Assembly: GCA_015055905.1 (NCBI GenBank)
Contig: SVHI01000003.1
Coordinates: 12,942-76,941, forward strand
Origin: Clostridiales bacterium
Lineage (GTDB): Bacteria > Bacillota > Clostridia > Christensenellales > UBA1242
Reading direction: 5' to 3'
Length of the DNA stretch: 64,000 nt
Shown one piece after another: positions 1,467 through 26,559 of the stretch. The notes under the pieces were generated by a model that was not told the origin of the DNA, did not search any database, and was given only the letters and a program-made list of their open reading frames with translations. A program made the translations under genes and the position numbers. Positions within the stretch are counted from its first letter, which is position 1. Every line of letters starts with the position of its first letter.

Positions 1467-3626
1467 GTGCTTTATGAATATTTAATAACAATTTATAAAA
1501 TTATCATTGGGCTTATCACACCAGAACTTTTGGTTGGTGTTGCTCTTGGAACTTTTGGGTTCTATTTGATTTGGATTTGTGTGGCATTATTCTGCTCATT
1601 CCAAAGAAAATTTAATGCAAAGTGTCACTCACTTGTGGGTGATATTAGAAAGAATAGAATAACCTCTGCTAACATTAGAGAAATCGATGAGAGAATCGAG
1701 AAGATTTCTGGTGGATTTTATCACGGTTGGAGAAAGTTTAAAACCAGTTCAAATGGTAAACCTTCTGATTACATCACCCGTAGAGAAAGCTTGGACGTAG
1801 AAATCAATGGCGGTGCGCTCAACCAAGGCAAGTCGGTTATGCGTGGTTTTATTGGGCTTGTTACATTCGTAATCTTCCTTTTAAACATCGCATATATTGG
1901 AAATGAAAAAACAATCACATTTATTGTGCTTGCTGAATCAATGGTGTTGCCATTCGTTTTCCACGTTGTTATGAAACTTTTCTATTTCTTGCAAAACTCA
2001 CTCAAACAAAGACTTTATAAACTTTCAGTTGAAAGTTTTTATGAATGTATTGACCTTTTAGACGATATGTTTGGTGCAAGTGCTGTTAGAGACCTTTCTT
2101 CTAACGCTTTGCCTGAAAATGTTGTAATTCAAGAAAGCATTGCTGTTGTTCCTGATGGTCCTGCTCCTGACATTGAAGACGGTGCAGAAAAAGCAGAAGG
2201 TGAGGGACAAGAACAGGTTGAAGGTGAAAACCTTGAAACAGCAGAACTCAAAGAAGAGGAAGAACCAGAAAACCTTTTGGATAAATATGACGTTTTCAAA
2301 AAGAAAAACATTGATATTGACAAGCTTATGAATGAGACTCCAAAGTCTGGAACAACTCTTCCATACATCGACGTTGATAGTGACTATGTTATTAAAGACG
2401 ACGATGAAGTTGGTGCTAAAATTGTGACCGACTCAGATAGTGCAACATCAATCTTAGGTGGAATGATGCAAAACACTAGTGGTCTTAAAAAAGGCGGTTC
2501 AAGTTTTATTGATGTTGACAAAGAAGTTGCTCAAATTGACAATGAAAAACTTGACGAACTCAAGAAGGCTGAAGAAGAAAAAGATGCTAGTTTTGAAGAC
2601 ACATTCAAGGCATTTGAAGTAAACCAAGAAGAGGAAAAGGTTGACGAAACCCCAGTTGATGAGACACCCTTAGAGGAGCCAACTTCGATTGAGGAAGTTG
2701 AACCAGAACCTGTTCCAGAACCAGTTGTTGAGCCAGAGCCAGAACCAGTTGTTGAAGAACCTGAAGAAGATATTGCTGCACAAGAAGCAGCAAATATTGC
2801 AAACGTTGTTAGCAACTTTAAGGCAAATAGACCAAAAATTGGTGGCGTTGTTATTGAAAGAAATGAGCCTATAGCTAGACGTGAAAGACGCGAAATGAAC
2901 TTGACAGAACAACCTTTGGTTGAAGACCTTGTTCCAAGTTATGACACAACTCCAGAGATTATTCGTCCAACTGCAGAAGTTGATGCAGATTCTATTTTGA
3001 ATTCTGTTAAGTCATCTGCTGGTGGCTATGACCCTTATGCTCAATATAATCCACAACCAACTTATTCTGCACCAGATTATAGCCAACAATATAGCGGCTA
3101 TGGTGCAATGCCAAACACATCATACACTCAACCTGTTCAAAATCCAGGTTATGCTGGTACTGATATGCAAGGCTATCAAGGTTACAACCAAACAGGTTAT
3201 GGCGTGAATAATTATCAAGGCTACAACCAAAACCAAAATGTTTATGGCGCATCTGAACAATATCAAGACTATAGTGCAGACGTTGAGGAAGAGGAAGCGT
3301 TCGAAGAAGAAGTTGTTGAAGAACAACCAAAGAAAAAGACTGTTCGAACAAAAGAAAACGAGCCAAGACCAAGAAACTTGAGAACAAAAACAAAACAAAC
3401 AACTGCTAAGGAAGAACCTATGGAAAAACGTGGAAGACCTAGAAAACAAGAAGTTAGCGAAACAATGACAATCAAGAGCGAAAAGGAATTCGATGAAGTT
3501 CTTGCTCGTGCTGAAAAATTGATGCGTAAGAGCGAAGAAGGCTTGTCTGAAAGTCAATCAAAGAGAATTGAAAAAGAACTTAAGATGTTGATGGACGCTA
3601 TGAACCGTTATAAGGAGAGTAAGTAA
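1467..3626 (+). CDS. Hypothetical membrane-anchored protein with a long disordered acidic/PEPV, Q/N/Y-rich and basic AT-hook tail
   Basis: GTG start 8 nt after GGAGGA. About four hydrophobic helices occupy the first 200 aa. Low-complexity segments follow, with KRGRPRK at nt 3426-3446. No family recognised. Confidence 0.6.
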   Translation: MLYEYLITIYKIIIGLITPELLVGVALGTFGFYLIWICVALFCSFQRKFNAKCHSLVGDIRKNRITSANIREIDERIEKISGGFYHGWRKFKTSSNGKPSDYITRRESLDVEINGGALNQGKSVMRGFIGLVTFVIFLLNIAYIGNEKTITFIVLAESMVLPFVFHVVMKLFYFLQNSLKQRLYKLSVESFYECIDLLDDMFGASAVRDLSSNALPENVVIQESIAVVPDGPAPDIEDGAEKAEGEGQEQVEGENLETAELKEEEEPENLLDKYDVFKKKNIDIDKLMNETPKSGTTLPYIDVDSDYVIKDDDEVGAKIVTDSDSATSILGGMMQNTSGLKKGGSSFIDVDKEVAQIDNEKLDELKKAEEEKDASFEDTFKAFEVNQEEEKVDETPVDETPLEEPTSIEEVEPEPVPEPVVEPEPEPVVEEPEEDIAAQEAANIANVVSNFKANRPKIGGVVIERNEPIARRERREMNLTEQPLVEDLVPSYDTTPEIIRPTAEVDADSILNSVKSSAGGYDPYAQYNPQPTYSAPDYSQQYSGYGAMPNTSYTQPVQNPGYAGTDMQGYQGYNQTGYGVNNYQGYNQNQNVYGASEQYQDYSADVEEEEAFEEEVVEEQPKKKTVRTKENEPRPRNLRTKTKQTTAKEEPMEKRGRPRKQEVSETMTIKSEKEFDEVLARAEKLMRKSEEGLSESQSKRIEKELKMLMDAMNRYKESK

Positions 3627-3889: not shown

Positions 3890-4402
3890 ATGTTTGAATG
3901 TAAAATCGCCACAACTAGCGATATGCTTGAGAAGTGGGACTATGAAATAAAAAGACACCCAAACGACAACAGGTGGGTGATTTGGAAAGAAACCGCAATA
4001 AACAATGTTAAGGCGGGCAATAGAATATGTTTCTACGGAGAACTTGACGGCGAGATTATTGTCGAAACGACCGCCATTATTAGTCGCAAAGACACCGGAC
4101 TTGAGAGAATGGAACTAGTTGACAGTAACGGGGCTTATTTGGAGGCTTTTAGAGTTAAAAAGGAGTTTGAAGGTCAGGGCTATTTTTCAAAAGTCTATAG
4201 GTTTATGGAAGAGTATTTGAAAAACCTTGGATTCGAAAAACTTACTTTAGGTGTTGAGCCAACCGAAGAAAGAAATAGGCAGATTTATTTTTATTTGGGG
4301 TTCACGAATTTTCTTTTCACTGCAACGGAAAAATACCCACCAAAAGAGGAGGGTAAAGAACCTGAAGAGATAGTTGTCAACTATTACTCAAAAGAAATTT
4401 AA
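3890..4402 (+). CDS. GNAT family N-acetyltransferase
   Basis: Motif-A-like FRVKKEFEGQGYFSK. GGAGG lies 6 nt upstream of ATG 3890, whereas the track ORF starts at 3869. Confidence 0.65.
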   Translation: MFECKIATTSDMLEKWDYEIKRHPNDNRWVIWKETAINNVKAGNRICFYGELDGEIIVETTAIISRKDTGLERMELVDSNGAYLEAFRVKKEFEGQGYFSKVYRFMEEYLKNLGFEKLTLGVEPTEERNRQIYFYLGFTNFLFTATEKYPPKEEGKEPEEIVVNYYSKEI

Positions 4403-4407
4403 ACAAC

Positions 4408-4438
4408 AAAAAAACTCAGCATTTAGCTGAGTCTTTTT
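4408..4438. terminator. Bidirectional intrinsic terminator between convergent genes
   Basis: ACTCAGC-attta-GCTGAGT flanked by an A-run and a T-run. Confidence 0.7.
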
Positions 4439-4439
4439 A

Positions 4440-4715
4440 TTAGTTGATTGTTTCTTTGAAACTCTTACCAAATTTAAGAGCTGGAACTTTGCAAGCAGCA
4501 ACTTTGATTGTTTCGCCTGGTTTTTGTGGATTTGGACGAACACAAGCAGCCTTTTGTCTTGCAACAAATGTGCCGAAGCCAACTAATGTGATTTTGTCAT
4601 TAGCTTTCATAGCTTCTTGAACTGTTTCAACAAATGCTTCATAGAATGCGTTAGCATCTTTGATTGTTGCTTCAGTTTTGTCAGCAATTGCTCTTAAAAA
4701 TTCATTTTTATTCAT
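4440..4715 (-). CDS. hup: HU family DNA-binding protein
   Basis: 91 aa with an HU signature (LVGFGTF...R.....NP..P.....V...KVPALKFGK). A strong AGGAGG Shine-Dalgarno (SD) is present. Confidence 0.9.
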   Translation of the reverse strand: MNKNEFLRAIADKTEATIKDANAFYEAFVETVQEAMKANDKITLVGFGTFVARQKAACVRPNPQKPGETIKVAACKVPALKFGKSFKETIN

Positions 4716-4931
4716 AAGTAATACCTCCTATTTTTTGCTCTTTTAAAGCTTACTTACTACAACCACTATATCACAATAAAAATCTATTTCAAAATAAAAA
4801 ATGGCTTTTTTACAAAAATTTTTCAAAAAATGTGATTTTATCGTGCTTTAGGGGCATATATAGTAATTTTTTTATGACTGTTTTGGCTTGAACATTAATT
4901 TTTTTGACTCATAACATAAGGGTATGGAGAC

Positions 4932-5258
4932 GTGTTTATGGATTATGTTTTGATAGATAAAAAGTCTACGTTTATTGATAAGGAAACAAAAATTGGCAAA
5001 AACGTTATAATTTATGAAAATAACCGCATTGACGGCAGGTCGGTAATTGAGGATAATGTGACAATTTTCCCTAATTGTTATATCGCCAATTCAATTATTG
5101 GCAAGGGTTCAAAAATTTATACATCTGTCATTGAAAACTCAAATATTGGCAGGTGTGCGTTTGTCGAGCCGTTTTCGCTTATTAAGGGTTCGATTGTTAG
5201 GGAAAAGTGTAAGGTTCAAGCGTTTTCGAAGTTGAAAAATGCGAAAATTGATAGTTAA
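4932..5258 (+). CDS. Short hexapeptide-repeat (left-handed beta-helix) protein resembling only the middle of GlmU; possible gene remnant
   Basis: 108 aa with [LIV]-G-x4 hexapeptide periodicity. It ends at ...VEPFSLIKGSIV...FSKLKNAKIDS, which parallels GlmU GPFARLRPG...FVE.KN, i.e. before the acetyltransferase catalytic part. Confidence 0.45.
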   Translation: MFMDYVLIDKKSTFIDKETKIGKNVIIYENNRIDGRSVIEDNVTIFPNCYIANSIIGKGSKIYTSVIENSNIGRCAFVEPFSLIKGSIVREKCKVQAFSKLKNAKIDS

Positions 5259-22859: not shown

Positions 22860-23238
22860 AGATTTTGATAAGGAAAAAATTGCCGAATATACAGATGAAG
22901 AACTTAAAATGTTCATCAACCAAATCATAATGCAAAGAAGTGTTTTGCAACAAAAATGCGCTGATGAAATGCAAGTTTATCTTGGAAACGAAAAGTTTGA
23001 TATCTATTCTAGGTCAGGTGAGAGAAAGATTAACAAAATCTCTGAAAAATATGCAGGATATTTTGCTGGTGCAGACTATTTGGAAGAAATCATTAACACC
23101 GAACTCAAAAAGAGAGAAAAATATAACGAAGAGCAAAAATATAGCGGCAGAAGCATCGTTAGAAGAGAGATGTCAAAAGAAGAGTTCTTGGAAAAAGAGC
23201 AAGACAAAACTTGGGCGTATAAATCTAAAATTGAGTAA
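22846..23238 (+). CDS. Hypothetical protein (130 aa, helical and charged)
   Basis: Overlaps the upstream gene by 14 nt, suggesting translational coupling. No recognised domain. Confidence 0.5.
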   Translation: MKHVKDFDKEKIAEYTDEELKMFINQIIMQRSVLQQKCADEMQVYLGNEKFDIYSRSGERKINKISEKYAGYFAGADYLEEIINTELKKREKYNEEQKYSGRSIVRREMSKEEFLEKEQDKTWAYKSKIE

Positions 23239-23255
23239 AATTTTATAAAAAATTA

Positions 23256-23284
23256 TTGCAAAAACAAACTGTGTATGCTATACT
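23256..23284 (+). promoter_or_regulatory. Promoter of tRNA-Glu
   Basis: TTGCAA-17-TATACT, with TG 1 nt upstream of the -10. Confidence 0.55.
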
Positions 23285-23303
23285 TTGTGAGTGAACAAAA
23301 TAT

Positions 23304-23378
23304 GGCATCATAGTCTAGCGGCTAGGACGCACGCCTCTCACGCGTGAGACCGGAGTTCGATTCTCCGTGGTGCTACCA
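23304..23378 (+). tRNA. tRNA-Glu (anticodon CTC), CCA encoded
   Basis: The cloverleaf was folded by hand. The acceptor stem GGCATCA/TGGTGCT has 2 G-U pairs and the D arm is GTCT..GGAC. The anticodon stem CACGC/GCGTG closes the loop CT-CTC-AC. The T arm is CGGAG-TTCGATT-CTCCG, followed by ACCA. Confidence 0.85.
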
Positions 23379-23387
23379 ATAAAAAAA

Positions 23388-23416
23388 AGGAAGAACGAAA
23401 GTTCTTCCTTTTTTTA
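23388..23416 (+). terminator. Intrinsic terminator after tRNA-Glu
   Basis: AGGAAGAAC-gaaa-GTTCTTCCT followed by T7. Confidence 0.8.
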
Positions 23417-23419
23417 TTT

Positions 23420-23840
23420 GCACCACAAGAAAATGCGAACTTGACGAGGAATGAAATGACGAGCAAGTTCGATGGCGTAGCCCACGAGTGAACGAGCAGA
23501 GTGGGCGAGAGAAAATGAAGACGGCTGGCGGGAGGCGGGCGGAATAGAAATTCGCGAGTATTGTCCGTGGTGCAAGTGGGTTTTTGTTTGTTCACACCAC
23601 AAGAAAATGCGAACTTGACGAGGAGTGAAATGACGAGCAAGTTCGATGGCGTAGCCCACGAGTGAACGAGCAGAGTGGGCGAGAGAAAATGAAGACGGCT
23701 GGCGTTGCGGGCGGAAGAGAAGTTCGCGAGTATTGTCCGTGGTGCAAGTGGTTTTTTTATTTGTTTGCACCACGAGAGAATCTCGAACTTGACGAGGAGC
23801 AGAGAGACGAGCAGGTTCGATGGCGTAGCCCACGAGTGAA
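23420..23840 (+). repeat. GC-rich tandem repeat of 2.4 copies (units 23420-23593, 23594-23766, and truncated 23767-23840); candidate structured RNA or tRNA-derived element
   Basis: Direct alignment of the three copies gives periods of 174 and 173 bp. Each unit contains conserved hairpins and a TCCGTGGTGC motif identical to the tRNA-Glu 3' end, and full units end in a T-run. Confidence 0.85.
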
Positions 23841-23871
23841 TTAAGAAATTAGGAAAAAAGATTAAAAATAA

Positions 23872-23898
23872 TTAGCACTCTATGCTTGACAGTGCTAA
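23872..23898 (+). promoter_or_regulatory. CIRCE operator (HrcA binding site) upstream of clpB
   Basis: TTAGCACTC-N9-CAGTGCTAA versus the consensus TTAGCACTC-N9-GAGTGCTAA (1 mismatch). Confidence 0.8.
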
Positions 23899-23914
23899 AA
23901 AGTAGTGGTATATT
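23886..23914 (+). promoter_or_regulatory. clpB promoter overlapping CIRCE
   Basis: TTGACA-17-TATATT with an extended TG. Confidence 0.65.
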
Positions 23915-23970
23915 TTTATGTGCTAGGGGATAGAATTTAACTTGAAGCCTAGCAAAGAAGGAGAAAGATT

Positions 23971-26559
23971 ATGAATTTTGAAAAATATACTGAGAAATCA
24001 CTTTCGGCTGTTCAAAGTTCGCAAAGACTCGCGACCGAAAATGGAAACAGCCAAATTGAGCAGGTTCATTTGCTTTATAGTCTTCTTGTTCAAGAAAATG
24101 GGCTTATTCCAGAGATTATTAAGGCAATGAGCATCGATTTATTAAAATTAACCGATGAAACCAAGGCAAAGATTGACAGGCTTTCGAGAGTGTCGGGACA
24201 ATCTGGCACCTATGCGTCAAACGAACTTGGAAATGTGTTTGCGGAGGCTGAAAAGCAAGCAAATTCAATGAAAGACGACTATGTTTCAGTTGAGCATTTG
24301 TTTTTGGGACTCATCGCAAAGGCTGATAGAGATGTGAAAGAAATTTTCGCAAATCACAAAATTACAAAAGATGCATTTTTGAAAATACTTATGAATGTGA
24401 GAGGTAATCAAAGAGTGTCAAATCAAAACCCAGAAGAAACTTATGATGTTCTTAAAAAATATGGTCAAAATCTCACTGATATGGCGAGAAAGAACAAACT
24501 TGACCCGATTATTGGAAGAGACGACGAAATTCGAAATGTTATTAGGATATTGTCGCGTAAAACAAAAAACAATCCTGTTTTGATTGGTGAAGCGGGTGTT
24601 GGTAAAACCGCAATCGCTGAAGGTCTTGCAATTCGTATTTTTAAGGGCGATGTTCCTTTGTCGCTCAAAAACCGCGAAGTGTTCTCGCTTGATATGGGAA
24701 GTTTGGTTGCTGGTGCAAAATATCGTGGTGAGTTTGAAGAAAGACTCAAAGCGGTTTTGGCTGAAGTGAAAAAGAGTGAAGGCAAAATTATTTTGTTTAT
24801 TGACGAACTTCACCTTATTGTTGGTGCAGGAAAGAGTGACGGTGCAATGGACGCTGGAAACATCTTAAAACCACTCCTTGCGCGTGGTGAACTTCACTGT
24901 ATTGGTGCAACAACTCTCGACGAATATAGAAAATATATTGAAAAAGACCCAGCACTTGAGCGTCGTTTTCAACCTGTTATGGTAAATGAACCAACCGTTG
25001 AAGACACAATCACAATTCTTCGTGGAATTAAGGAAAGATATGAGGTTTTCCACGGGGTTAAGATTGCTGACAATGCGCTCGTTTCAGCTGCTATGCTTTC
25101 AAATAGATACATCACTGACAGGTTCCTTCCAGACAAGGCGATTGACCTTGTTGACGAGGCTTGCGCAAACATTAAGACTGAAATCGACTCAATGCCAACT
25201 GAAATGGACGAGATTAATAGAAAGATTATTGGTCTTCAAATTGAAGAGGCAGGGCTCAAGAAAGAAACTGACGATATTTCAAAATCAAGGTTAGCCAAGA
25301 TTCAGGCGGAACTTTCAAAATATAAAGATAAATATGACCAAATGACCGCAAAATGGCAAAACGAAAAGAAAGCGATTGAACAAATCAATAAACTCAAAGG
25401 CGAGATTGAAGATGTTAAGTCACAAATTGAGCACGCGAAAAAAGAATATGATTTGAACAAGGCGGCAGAACTATCTTATTCAACACTTCCTAGTCTTGAA
25501 AAAGAACTTTCTAAAGCAGAGAGCGAGTATGAAAAAACAAAAGGCAACAATCTTTTGAGAAACAAGGTGACCGAAGAAGAAATTTCAAAAATTGTGTCAC
25601 GCTGGACGGGAATTCCTGTTTCAAAACTAAACGAAAGCGACAAAGAAAAACTTTTGAGATTAGAGGAAATCTTGCATAAACGCGTTATTGGTCAAGACGA
25701 GGCAGTGAGCAAGGTTGCTGATGCAATTTTGAGGTCTAGAGCGGGTATTGCTGACCCAAACAAACCAGTTGGTTCGTTCTTGTTCCTTGGACCTACAGGC
25801 GTTGGTAAAACTGAACTTTCAAAGGCACTTGCTGAAGCACTTTTTGATGACGAAAAAAACATTGTTCGAATTGATATGAGCGAGTATATGGAAAAATTCT
25901 CGGTGTCAAGGCTCATTGGTGCGCCTCCTGGATATGTTGGCTATGACGAGGGCGGGGAACTAACCGAAGCAGTGAGACGTCACCCATATTCAGTTGTTTT
26001 GTTTGATGAAATCGAAAAGGCACACCCAGATGTGTTCAACATACTTCTTCAAATGCTTGATGACGGCAGAATAACCGACAGCCAAGGCAGAACAGTTGAT
26101 TTTAAGAACACAATTATTATTTTAACATCAAACCTTGGTGCAAACGCCATTTTGGACGGGGTTCGTGAAGACGGAACAATCAAGGCAGAGGCAGTTAATG
26201 AGGTCCACAAAACACTCAAACGCTCATTTAGACCAGAACTTTTGAATAGACTCGACGAGATTATTATTTTCAACCCTCTCACTAAAAATCAAATTGGCAA
26301 TATTGTTGATTTGTTACTTCAAAATGTTAGGGGTAGACTTGAAGAAAAGAACATTGGTTTGGAAATCACAAACACTGCAAAAGATTCAATTATTGAACAA
26401 GGCTATGATGTTGCGTTTGGTGCAAGACCACTTAAAAGGTTTATTTCAAGCACTCTTGAAACGCTGCTTGCAAAAGCAATTATTTCAGGTGGCGTTAAAC
26501 CAAACTCAACCATTGTTGTTGACGCAAAAGACGGCGAATTTAAAATTAGCAACAAATAA
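23971..26559 (+). CDS. clpB: ATP-dependent chaperone/disaggregase ClpB
   Basis: 862 aa with two AAA+ modules (GEAGVGKTAI, GPTGVGKTEL), a long coiled-coil M-domain between them, and a Clp_N repeat N-terminus. Confidence 0.95.
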   Translation: MNFEKYTEKSLSAVQSSQRLATENGNSQIEQVHLLYSLLVQENGLIPEIIKAMSIDLLKLTDETKAKIDRLSRVSGQSGTYASNELGNVFAEAEKQANSMKDDYVSVEHLFLGLIAKADRDVKEIFANHKITKDAFLKILMNVRGNQRVSNQNPEETYDVLKKYGQNLTDMARKNKLDPIIGRDDEIRNVIRILSRKTKNNPVLIGEAGVGKTAIAEGLAIRIFKGDVPLSLKNREVFSLDMGSLVAGAKYRGEFEERLKAVLAEVKKSEGKIILFIDELHLIVGAGKSDGAMDAGNILKPLLARGELHCIGATTLDEYRKYIEKDPALERRFQPVMVNEPTVEDTITILRGIKERYEVFHGVKIADNALVSAAMLSNRYITDRFLPDKAIDLVDEACANIKTEIDSMPTEMDEINRKIIGLQIEEAGLKKETDDISKSRLAKIQAELSKYKDKYDQMTAKWQNEKKAIEQINKLKGEIEDVKSQIEHAKKEYDLNKAAELSYSTLPSLEKELSKAESEYEKTKGNNLLRNKVTEEEISKIVSRWTGIPVSKLNESDKEKLLRLEEILHKRVIGQDEAVSKVADAILRSRAGIADPNKPVGSFLFLGPTGVGKTELSKALAEALFDDEKNIVRIDMSEYMEKFSVSRLIGAPPGYVGYDEGGELTEAVRRHPYSVVLFDEIEKAHPDVFNILLQMLDDGRITDSQGRTVDFKNTIIILTSNLGANAILDGVREDGTIKAEAVNEVHKTLKRSFRPELLNRLDEIIIFNPLTKNQIGNIVDLLLQNVRGRLEEKNIGLEITNTAKDSIIEQGYDVAFGARPLKRFISSTLETLLAKAIISGGVKPNSTIVVDAKDGEFKISNK

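Follow-up and report, generated by a model that had tools for sequence, protein, structure and literature searches.

Directly 3' of the tRNA-Glu(CUC) gene and its terminator, the 64-kb stretch of DNA analysed here (the window), which comes from an uncultured Clostridia bacterium of gut type, carries a GC-rich tandem array that is real, and that probably represents an undescribed structured RNA rather than mobile-element insertion debris. The reading that we prefer, with a probability of about 40%, is that of a lineage-specific, tRNA-derived module that was tandemly amplified from inside tRNA-Glu(CUC) and acts as a structured RNA of the plus strand. This reading draws on the observed anatomy of the units, their homology to the tRNA, their conservation, compensatory and wobble changes, and a polymorphic copy number; transcription, processing and binding are its putative steps. 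Tandem Repeats Finder reported a single array, at 23409-23840, with a period of 174, 2.5 copies, 90% matches and a score of 691. Over 23400-23850 the GC fraction is 0.50-0.53; the upstream flank has 0.26-0.34 and the DNA just downstream 0.29. The genome as a whole has about 30% GC, compared with 50-53% for the array. In a MAFFT alignment of the three copies, a 2-nt indel separates copies 1 and 2, and the homology of copy 3 stops at about 23840. These three analyses confirm the array described in an earlier note on this DNA, all coordinates of which agree with the sequence.

The core blocks have no second site within the 64-kb window (0 expected by chance), and further copies of the unit were found neither there nor in about 400 kb of related loci and fetched flanks. 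A pattern scan with block B4 of 185,579 species genomes gave 0 matches, a BLAST comparison of the array with phage and plasmid collections gave none either, and scans of viral contigs with exact or degenerate patterns returned nothing, or chance matches within coding DNA. The B3 pattern had six single matches in the JGI metagenomes, five of which, in GC-rich DNA, were plainly due to chance. The sixth, on a contig of 39% GC (L027), was also rejected, having no further similarity and no tRNA nearby.

As listed in Table 1, the repeated segment begins inside the tRNA gene and comprises x, a terminator, a mirror-image copy of x termed x', the long hairpin P2 with its CGAG/CGAG box, the conserved block B3, and a purine-rich spacer (V2) of 63-66 nt. 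By sequence comparison, x is the source of the direct and the mirror-image copies that every unit contains. Pairing of x' with x closes each full unit with a stem that copies the acceptor stem of tRNA-Glu; in the window lineage this stem has U at -1, G1-C72 and discriminator A. As had been noted before, the units start with GCACCAC (ACACCAC in copy 2) and end in the complement GTGGTGC, which is found at 23567-23573 and 23739-23745 within TCCGTGGTGC, a sequence identical to tRNA positions 23364-23373. These two strands form P1, which pairs in all full units and varies by G·U-type changes only. The T-runs behind both full units are present as well, and the A-to-G change at 23814 in unit 3 creates a U·G pair and keeps P2 paired, as claimed. 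The proposed 6-bp hairpin stood only in part: GCCCAC (23480-23485) can pair with GTGGGC (23501-23506) in unit 1, but the hairpin is missing from several relatives and is not conserved.

Table 1. Coordinates of the tRNA-Glu(CUC) gene, the repeat units and the flanking signals (window positions)
Feature	Position	Strand	Basis or remark
Promoter-like site of tRNA-Glu, TTGCAA-17-TATACT with TG	23256..23284	+	Promoter scan
tRNA-Glu(CUC) gene, CCA encoded	23304..23378	+	ARAGORN; Rfam tRNA 61.1 bits
Segment x of the tRNA, ATTCTCCGTGGTGCT: T-loop 3' half, 3' strands of T-stem and acceptor stem	23360..23374	+	
tRNA terminator: A-run, GGAAGAAC-GAAA-GTTCTTCC, T-run	23381..23419	+	
Unit 1, full	23420..23593	+	
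Unit 1 P1 5' strand, GCACCAC	23420-23426	+	
Unit 1 P2 5' strand, CGAACTTG	23436-23443	+	Pairs with 3' strand
Unit 1 P2 3' strand, CAAGTTCG	23464-23471	+	Pairs with 5' strand
Unit 1 CGAG box	23445-23448 and 23460-23463	+	
Unit 1 block B3	23467-23488	+	
Unit 1 purine-rich spacer V2, 66 nt	23489-23554	+	
Unit 1 B4 and x copy, CGAGTATTGTCCGTGGTGC	23555-23573	+	
Unit 1 T-rich spacer	23574-23593	+	
Unit 2, full	23594..23766	+	
Unit 2 ACACCAC	23594-23600	+	
Unit 2 P2	23610-23645	+	
Unit 2 B3	23641-23662	+	
Unit 2 V2, 64 nt	23663-23726	+	
Unit 2 B4 and x copy	23727-23745	+	
Unit 2 T-rich spacer	23746-23766	+	
Unit 3, terminal copy without 3' part	23767..23840	+	Homology stops at about 23840
Unit 3 GCACCAC	23767-23773	+	
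Unit 3 P2	23784-23819	+	
Unit 3 B3	23815-23836	+	
CIRCE operator, TTAGCACTC-N9-CAGTGCTAA	23872-23898	+	Composite with clpB promoter, 23872..23914
clpB promoter, TTGACA-17-TATATT	23886-23914	+	Overlapped by CIRCE

The suggestion that the element is tRNA-derived was borne out, since its 3' end copies the T-loop, T-stem and acceptor 3' strand of tRNA-Glu and its 5' end is the reverse complement. The 3' end of the unit is identical to the tRNA 3' end at 13 of 14 positions in the window and at 18 of 19 in the relative L035. When the tRNA was locally aligned with the 3' end of the unit, 0-2 of 500 shuffles reached the score in four of five lineages, so by this measure the resemblance exceeds chance; a test of the same type in L010 gave 25 of 500 (p = 0.05). 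The 5' end of the unit matches the reverse complement of the last 20 nt of the tRNA in every lineage. In L060, where the T-stem of the tRNA is altered, pairing is re-established by a single matching change in the unit 5' end, and a G·U pair is tolerated.

In the related metagenome contigs the gene order is conserved: a 130-aa ORF, tRNA-Glu, a variable region, and CIRCE/clpB. In all relatives the variable region has a fixed right-hand edge formed by CIRCE and the clpB promoter, which lie outside the repeat. The contigs, from a clade of uncultured Clostridia, carry the unit at this one locus, in 0 to more than 3 copies; when related loci were sought through the 130-aa family, a single MAG came up, labelled 'Clostridia bacterium'. 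Even within the species the copy number ranges from 1.5 to more than 3.3, and contigs break inside the array. Most lineages retain at least one full unit together with a partial one, and because tandem duplications are normally unstable, this persistence suggests selection. The element was lost or cut to a stump in L023, L038 and L022 and is thus dispensable; the truncated copies that persist in L022 keep only x', P2 and B3. The blocks CGAACTTG-N-CGAG, CGAG-CA(A)GTTCGATGGCGNAGCCCACGAG and CGAGTATTNTYCGTGGTGC are retained where the neighbouring 130-aa protein is only 52-60% identical, and the spacers between them have diverged. GATGGCGNAGCC, the CGAG boxes and CGCGAGTATT, for which the tRNA has no counterpart, are almost invariant in lineages whose neutral intergenic sequence is randomised. 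V2 measures 63-66 nt in 13 distinct units, with a GC fraction of 0.25 to 0.58, and the 5' domain comes in two length classes, 65-72 nt and 119-120 nt. Like the conserved blocks, these constant spacer lengths point to a structured RNA of the plus strand. T-runs or full terminators follow the units on the plus strand, including those of relatives, and favour this strand; in the window lineage, the terminators inside the array are decayed.

The earlier note had regarded the 8-bp inner hairpin as structured, and P2 is indeed conserved: 19 distinct copies, drawn from about 10 lineages, retain it, and compensatory changes occur in its distal part. It is paired in 86.8% of cells, versus 17-38% with slid partners. 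Three of its pairs have changed on both sides, and 5 of 500 shuffles gave a covariation score as high as that observed; at the tip, pairs have changed from C-G to U-A and from A-U to G-C. Since most helices do not vary, the covariation comes from a few pairs in about 10 lineages. Pairs were counted in an alignment of the 5' domain and by script. RNAalifold, applied to the MAFFT alignment of full units, in which the 5' ends are misaligned, proposed GCCCACG/CGTGGTGC rather than P1, and this pairing is one of several alternatives that compete. Within the otherwise complementary P2 stem, the CGAG/CGAG tandem G·A box stays non-complementary, with a change to CGAA/UGAG in L022; were the element a palindrome of the DNA only, such a box should not be kept. 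The stem states include 12 G·U against 3 A·C (binomial p = 0.018), an excess that favours an RNA read from the plus strand. The high GC content of the array and unit folding z-scores of -1.6 to -3.4 also speak for a structured RNA, whereas the similarity of these z-scores on the two strands speaks against it.

To identify a known RNA family, we ran cmscan against Rfam 15. At the gathering score, the window and eight related loci gave tRNA matches only, and permissive searches (E<=10 over 23200-24000, E<=1 over the L035 unit) again found only the genuine tRNA, which agrees with the earlier view that this is no standard RNA family. The Rfam models for tRNA, tmRNA and Y RNA did not match the units, ARAGORN found one tRNA and no tmRNA, and a convincing T-arm was not found in the units. 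The unit ends do form a 7-bp acceptor-type stem, the 3' strand of which is homologous to tRNA-Glu; a cloverleaf, or an acceptor stem with T-arm that covariance models recognise, was not found in the units. Readings as a K-turn, T-box specifier, hammerhead or group II intron were dropped, as the defining motifs are absent. A literature search found no description of such an element.

The only candidate plus-strand promoter upstream of the array is that of the tRNA gene. A promoter scan, together with a reading of the flanks of relatives, found no sigma-70-type promoter before any unit; expression of the units would therefore need read-through of the tRNA terminator, which looks strong. The strict rule of our terminator scan missed even this obvious terminator.

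In the reading that we prefer, a segment made up of x, which spans the final 15-20 nt of the tRNA, the terminator, x', P2, B3 and the purine-rich spacer of about 65 nt would have been amplified in tandem, with one or more copies retained behind this single tRNA gene in the clade of uncultured Clostridia. Transcription from the strong tRNA promoter would continue past the tRNA terminator into the units, where x' and x may fold into a closing stem of 7-10 bp per unit that copies the tRNA-Glu acceptor stem. RNAs of unit length could then be set by tRNA end-processing enzymes and by the T-run or terminator behind each unit. The function would reside in the invariant CGAG/CGAG box of P2 and in B3, probably as a platform for protein binding, and unequal recombination between x copies would shift the copy number and so alter only the dosage. 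A more specific version, which we consider a long shot, places the unit in a new class of tRNA-end mimics. A plus-strand RNA from the tRNA-Glu trailer would reproduce the tRNA-Glu acceptor stem at its ends and would therefore be excised and finished by RNase P, RNase Z and the CCA-adding enzyme. Either the GA-motif hairpin, B3 and the fixed-length purine-rich linker would bind a cellular factor, or the x' arm would base-pair to the tRNA-Glu(CUC) 3' end. In both cases an enzyme or toxin that recognises the acceptor end of tRNA-Glu might be decoyed or regulated by the RNA, with the dosage set by copy number.

Two explanations would make the array either a gene or the trace of a mobile element. 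There is next to no chance that it encodes a minus-strand repeat protein, the 139-aa ORF at 23414-23833. This frame is open through all three copies, and the annotation of several contigs lists it as a gene, but stop codons are scarce on the minus strand because it is C/T-rich. The frame-breaking indel between copies 1 and 2, pointed out earlier and seen in the MAFFT alignment, leaves the 'repeats' to be read in different frames, there is only one sub-threshold Pfam match, and the AT-rich spacers and indels of the relatives are incompatible with a conserved frame, which together effectively refute it as coding. Whatever its nature, the array accounts for the assembly breaks that metagenomes show at this locus and for the false calling of a 139-aa 'gene' there. 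Tandem accretion of cis-mobilisable elements is a known concept, and the earlier note had considered stacked remnants of an integrative element; that the units are att scars or miniature cis-mobilisable elements, left by elements that target the tRNA-Glu 3' end, is nevertheless very unlikely. In favour of it are the direct tRNA 3'-end copies downstream of that very tRNA and the changing genes of the tRNA-clpB interval (NUDIX, methyltransferase, and ORFs without assignment), and according to PMC9897764 tRNA fragments are a common footprint of integration. However, no integrase, excisionase, phage-like or other mobile-element gene was found by Pfam and PHROGs among the flanking and variable ORFs, or in precomputed Pfam annotations of about 40 contigs. 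Direct repeats of att origin would be expected to restore the whole tRNA 3' end, discriminator and CCA included, and are typically tens of bp long. The identity to the tRNA covers only 10-18 nt and in all lineages ends either on the final base of the acceptor stem or on the base preceding it, before the discriminator and CCA, and the bases that follow differ from ACCA in all of them. The absence of an integrase nearby, and an identity that does not extend to ACCA, make att-site debris unlikely. Moreover, L022, L035 and L037 lack an x-like sequence between the variable genes and clpB, site-specific integration cannot produce inverted copies, the phage, plasmid and viral collections gave nothing, and the unit, with its conserved non-tRNA blocks, sits at the same place in distant lineages.

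It is rather unlikely, though by no means far-fetched, that the array is a non-functional by-product at the DNA level, in which a terminator hairpin beside a highly transcribed tRNA gene causes fold-back and template-switch errors of replication and unequal crossing-over, giving first mirror-image and direct copies of the tRNA 3' end and later a minisatellite, while gene conversion or quasi-palindrome correction refreshes the tRNA similarity, so that the 'structure' is palindromy. The tRNA end, terminator and x' do form one near-perfect palindrome in all lineages (z -7.0 to -9.7), folding z-scores of the units (-1.6 to -3.4) are similar on the two strands, and the unit terminators are copies of tRNA terminators found in other lineages. 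The last copy of every array lacks x, as a duplication starting inside the tRNA gene would give, and the polymorphic copy number with its contig breaks, the missing unit promoter, and the loss in L023 and L038 fit as well. Such a process leaves unexplained why blocks without tRNA counterpart are almost invariant, why spacer lengths are conserved, and why a high GC content is kept in an AT-rich genome; palindrome correction would also have turned the G·A box into Watson-Crick pairs, and the G·U over A·C excess argues against it too. The same palindrome bears on a cis-acting extension of the terminator, an 'anti-tRNA' arm, which we regard as improbable. Here x' of a read-through transcript would pair with the T-loop, T-stem and acceptor 3' strand of the tRNA across the terminator, and the resulting double-stranded hairpin of about 35 bp would block maturation of read-through precursors or mark them for RNase III; it may also be a strong insulator before clpB that works in both directions, further units being duplicates of the junction. 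In the window, x, the terminator and the first GCACCAC form one long hairpin (23356-23432, -31.4 kcal/mol, z -8.5), x' invariably starts where the T-run behind the terminator stem (10-12 nt) stops, its sequence matches the altered T-stem of the L060 tRNA, and truncated x'/P2/B3 copies persist in L022. On the other hand, x' is made only after the tRNA has folded, and in the window lineage most of the extension past GCACCAC is decayed. An arm of this kind explains neither the conserved P2 box, B3, B4 and fixed spacer lengths nor why most lineages retain a full unit with another copy of x to close it.

If the RNA reading is true, the unit would be a new bacterial non-coding RNA family that arose out of the 3' end and the terminator of a tRNA gene. 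It would indicate that tRNA trailers can become tRNA-mimicking RNAs whose dosage is tuned by duplication from inside the tRNA gene. If instead the DNA-level by-product is the true explanation, the locus would be a clear example from nature of how a terminator hairpin seeds the extension of a palindrome and the formation of a minisatellite. The array is also a counter-example to reading every tRNA 3'-end fragment behind a tRNA gene as an integration scar.

REP, REPIN and BIME sequences are dispersed in tens to hundreds of copies. Like the units, they are imperfect palindromes behind terminators, often as inverted doublets, but the module described here occurs at one locus (in the 64-kb window and all fetched flanks) and derives from the neighbouring tRNA. 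With the attL/attR tRNA fragments of PMC9897764, where one repeat pair is 44 bp, the array shares repeated tRNA 3' ends behind an intact gene and an adjoining variable gene set, whereas its identity is very short and lacks ACCA, mirror-image copies occur, and there is neither an integrase nor an island between the repeats. Type III toxin-antitoxin arrays (ToxI and relatives; PMC3401426) have repeats of about 36-45 nt followed by a toxin gene. Here too, tandem repeats would give a repetitive RNA and then a terminator, but the period of 174 nt, and ClpB downstream under its own CIRCE-controlled promoter rather than a toxin endoribonuclease, do not fit an antitoxin array. Small RNAs also arise from tRNA 3' external transcribed spacers, such as 3'ETS-leuZ of E. 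coli. The units resemble them in their tRNA trailer position, the lack of a promoter of their own, and a release that would depend on the tRNA promoter and processing. They differ in following the terminator instead of preceding it, in being 155-200 nt long and tandemly repeated, in being built from direct and inverted tRNA-end copies without an obvious Hfq-type seed, and in that their expression is putative. Larger RNAs closed by tRNA-like domains include tmRNA with its TLD, the bacterial Y RNA YrlA, and mascRNA. Unlike these, the unit has no canonical T-loop or T-arm, no encoded CCA, and no SmpB or Rsr context; in common with them, its ends can pair into a 7-bp stem of acceptor sequence, with the rest inserted between, and its 3' strand copies the T-stem and acceptor strand.

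The GC-rich tandem array that the earlier note had described behind tRNA-Glu(CUC) was recovered by Tandem Repeats Finder as one strong array (period 174, 2.5 copies, 90% matches, score 691), with a GC content of 0.50-0.53 compared to ~0.26-0.34 in the flanks, and its position after the tRNA was confirmed (see table). The plus strand of the array has more G than C and an excess of purines. In a three-copy alignment, copies 1 and 2 differ by a 2-nt indel, and the homology of copy 3 stops at ~23840. The details that had been read from the sequence, i.e. GCACCAC, GTGGTGC, two inverted repeats (8 bp and 6 bp), the A-to-G change at 23814 and the T-runs, were all found in place, and TCCGTGGTGC is indeed common to the unit and the tRNA. 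The conserved cores do not occur a second time within the 64-kb window. A minus-strand ORF of 139 aa, which several public metagenome contigs list as a gene, spans the array on the C/T-rich strand. Since the repeat copies fall in different frames, the ORF is almost certainly spurious, an artefact of gene calling. The genes upstream of the array are housekeeping genes or of unknown kind, and no integrase or phage gene was found near it.

Features of the window, parts of the unit and state of the locus in relatives
Feature	Position or relation	Content	Remark
Upstream genes		TatD, KsgA, 507-aa ORF; TSCPD, DUF4364 (minus strand); 256-aa ORF, 130-aa ORF
tRNA-Glu(CUC)	23304-23378		ARAGORN, Rfam
Tandem array	23409-23840
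139-aa ORF	23414-23833 (-)		rejected
G-tracts in V2	23531-23550 and unit 2 equivalent	GGCTGGCGGGAGGCGGGCGG
CIRCE (HrcA) operator	23872-23898	TTAGCACTC-N9-CAGTGCTAA	overlaps -35 of clpB promoter; read from sequence
clpB promoter	23886-23914		strong; clpB downstream of array
B1	5' end of unit	GCACC(AC)
B2		CGAAYTTG-N-CGAG
V1	after B2	11 nt or ~60 nt	variable hairpin tip
B3		CGAG-CA(A)GTTCGATGGCGNAGCCCACGAG
V2		63-66 nt in every lineage	purine-rich spacer, GC 0.25 to 0.58
B4	3' end of unit	CGAGTATTNTYCGTGGTGC
L002, L009	window's species	1.5 copies
Most contigs, including divergent L001	window's species	2.5 copies
L018	window's species	>3.3 copies
L010	window's species	strongly divergent unit
L021	ClpB 94%	2.4 copies
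L031	130-aa protein 88%	2.8 copies
L022	ClpB 90%	first ~105 nt of unit alone	then two unknown ORFs
L023	ClpB 87%	no unit	NUDIX gene in place
L035	130-aa protein 60%	one full unit and stump
L037	130-aa protein 58%	one full unit
L060	130-aa protein 56%	unit start	contig ends
L055	130-aa protein 52%	one full unit and stump
L038	130-aa protein 53%	25-nt remnant

Exact-protein look-ups and two protein searches yielded ~40 contigs of related loci (L-numbers), the sole named source being 'MAG: Clostridia bacterium', and all share the order 130-aa ORF, tRNA-Glu(CUC), variable interval, CIRCE/clpB. The CIRCE operator is kept in every relative and is the constant right-hand boundary of the variable interval. 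The distance of a lineage from the window's species was expressed as identity of the 130-aa protein encoded upstream of the tRNA, or of ClpB where marked. Copy number is polymorphic within this species, and several contigs break off inside the array. Between tRNA-Glu and clpB, L022, L023, L035, L037, L038 and L055 carry small gene sets that differ (NUDIX, SAM methyltransferase, several ORFs without family match), thus this interval is a gene-turnover hotspot; no mobile-element genes were found in it in these contigs. In L037, a publicly annotated gene (4369-4971, minus strand) is interrupted by a stop codon when translated with table 11, which may reflect pseudogene formation, recoding or an error in sequencing. 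Two distant relatives contain, upstream of clpB, a GC-rich 51-nt tandem repeat of 3.3 copies (GGGGGATTTCTC...TCGAAATGACA) that is unrelated to the unit, absent from the window and without Rfam match (L038, 4397-4562; L055, ~3330-3450, opposite orientation). When a unit profile was run over the window and every fetched flank, it picked up no additional copy. Outside this clade, neither viral contigs nor the collections of phages and plasmids contained a true match to the element, the B4 pattern gave none in 185,579 species genomes, and a JGI metagenome scan yielded chance matches only. A 21-nt exact match to B3 (GTTCGATGGCGTAGCCCACGA) in an unrelated metagenome contig of 39% GC (L027, 8780-8802, minus strand), with neither a nearby tRNA nor further similarity, is probably also due to chance.

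The conserved blocks (B1-B4) and variable parts (V1, V2) of the unit were delimited by comparing 14 distinct full units, together with several incomplete ones. Depending on V1, the 5' domain measures 65-72 nt or 119-120 nt. V2 of the window lineage contains a series of short G-tracts, which are replaced by A-rich sequence in the same-length spacers of other lineages and strain L010. The 6-bp GCCCAC/GTGGGC hairpin, previously listed as an element of the unit, is present in the window but not conserved across relatives.

The suggestion that the unit is a tRNA-derived element was borne out. By local alignment, B4 reproduces the 3' end of the tRNA (identity 13/14 in the window, 18/19 in L035), and the score was reached by 0-2 of 500 shuffles in four of five lineages and by 25/500 in L010. 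The stretch from B1 through B2, judged in the same way, corresponds to the final 20 nt of the tRNA in reverse complement, with GCACCAC-AAGAAAATGCGAACT of the window unit aligning to GCACCACGGAGAATCGAACT. On the reverse strand, the tRNA of L010 aligns best with the latter half of B3 (AGCCCACGAGAGAACGAA), apparently a second mirror copy of greater age. Because the 5' end of the unit is the reverse complement of the tRNA end, the 3' part of the tRNA, its terminator and this 5' end make up one giant hairpin (z-score -8.5 in the window, -8.8 in L035, -9.7 in L060 and -7.0 in L055). The tRNA T-stem of L060 is CAGGG/CCCTG instead of CGGAG/CTCCG and its unit has CGGGG in the 5' end, pairing being regained by one change and a tolerated G·U. 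The unit terminators read as copies of tRNA terminators of other lineages: that of L010 (6720-6790) is near-identical to the tRNA terminator of L055 (3030-3075), and that of L055 (3230-3280) to the tRNA terminator of L031 (3540-3575), indicating either that lineages have exchanged parts of the array or that the polymorphism is ancestral. In the simplest history, a segment consisting of the tRNA 3' end (x, 23360-23374), terminator, mirror-image copy of x and body would have been duplicated in tandem. The first x of this segment would be the tRNA's own 3' end, which would account for the absence of x from the terminal copy of every array.

Hardly any variation was seen in the blocks that have no counterpart in the tRNA, in contrast to the diverged spacers and tRNA promoter region. 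The module shows signs of purifying selection. The 8-bp hairpin described earlier (P2) proved to be conserved, with 86.8% of cells paired versus 17-38% when partners were slid, and three pairs with changes on both sides; its covariation score was reached by 5/500 shuffles. The two 11-nt tip types of P2 share their register (C-G, A-U, A-U, C-G versus G·A, A·G, A-U, U-A), and in the L010 tip an A-U has become G-C. P2 also contains a bulged base followed by CGAG opposite CGAG (C-G, G·A, A·G, G-C), a box that 16 of 18 inspected copies share. The remaining two deviate: L022 has CGAA/UGAG, with the flanking G-C swapped for A-U, and copy L031_c2 has CGAG/CGAA, resulting in an A·C mismatch. Variation in the closing stem P1 (GCACCAC/GTGGTGC) is limited to G·U-compatible changes, and in L009 two changes lengthen it to 10 bp. 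The stems together gave 12 distinct G·U versus 3 A·C states, the L031_c2 mismatch included (one-sided binomial p=0.018, the states not all being independent), a bias that favours the plus strand. On the plus strand, the units are followed by T-runs or complete terminators. Folding z-scores of the unit range from -1.6 to -3.4, and are similar for the minus strand.

Thus, the module is real, lineage-restricted and derived from tRNA-Glu. We tentatively propose, with a probability of about 0.4, that read-through from the tRNA promoter would yield a plus-strand structured RNA, closed by the acceptor-stem copy, with the conserved GA-box hairpin and B3 as its functional core, and that recombination between the tRNA-end copies would shift the copy number. 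Several observations speak against a functional RNA: neither a promoter scan of the window nor inspection of the other lineages' sequences revealed a promoter in front of the units, the tRNA terminator appears strong, some lineages can do without the element, the majority of helices show no variation, and competing pairings exist. It is conceivable, if rather unlikely, that the array is a non-functional outcome of fold-back and unequal crossing-over at the terminator; retention of a non-complementary box within a palindrome would fit an RNA motif and not DNA palindrome correction. Less probable still is an 'anti-tRNA' extension of the terminator that acts in cis. The remnants of an integrative element suggested in the earlier note, i.e. 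att-site debris, are very improbable, and this reading failed every test run. Neither the Pfam domains of the relatives' contigs nor other domain searches included integrase or mobile-element domains, and no repeat was found between the variable genes and clpB in L022, L035 or L037. The identity between unit and tRNA ends before ACCA, and its length falls well below the 44 bp of the att repeat pair given in PMC9897764. Moreover, site-specific integration cannot produce mirror copies.

The module falls outside every described RNA family, Rfam searches of the window and eight related loci having matched tRNA only. In its mode of working, the structured plus-strand RNA proposed here would come closest to a combination of a tRNA-trailer sRNA and a tRNA-like closing domain.
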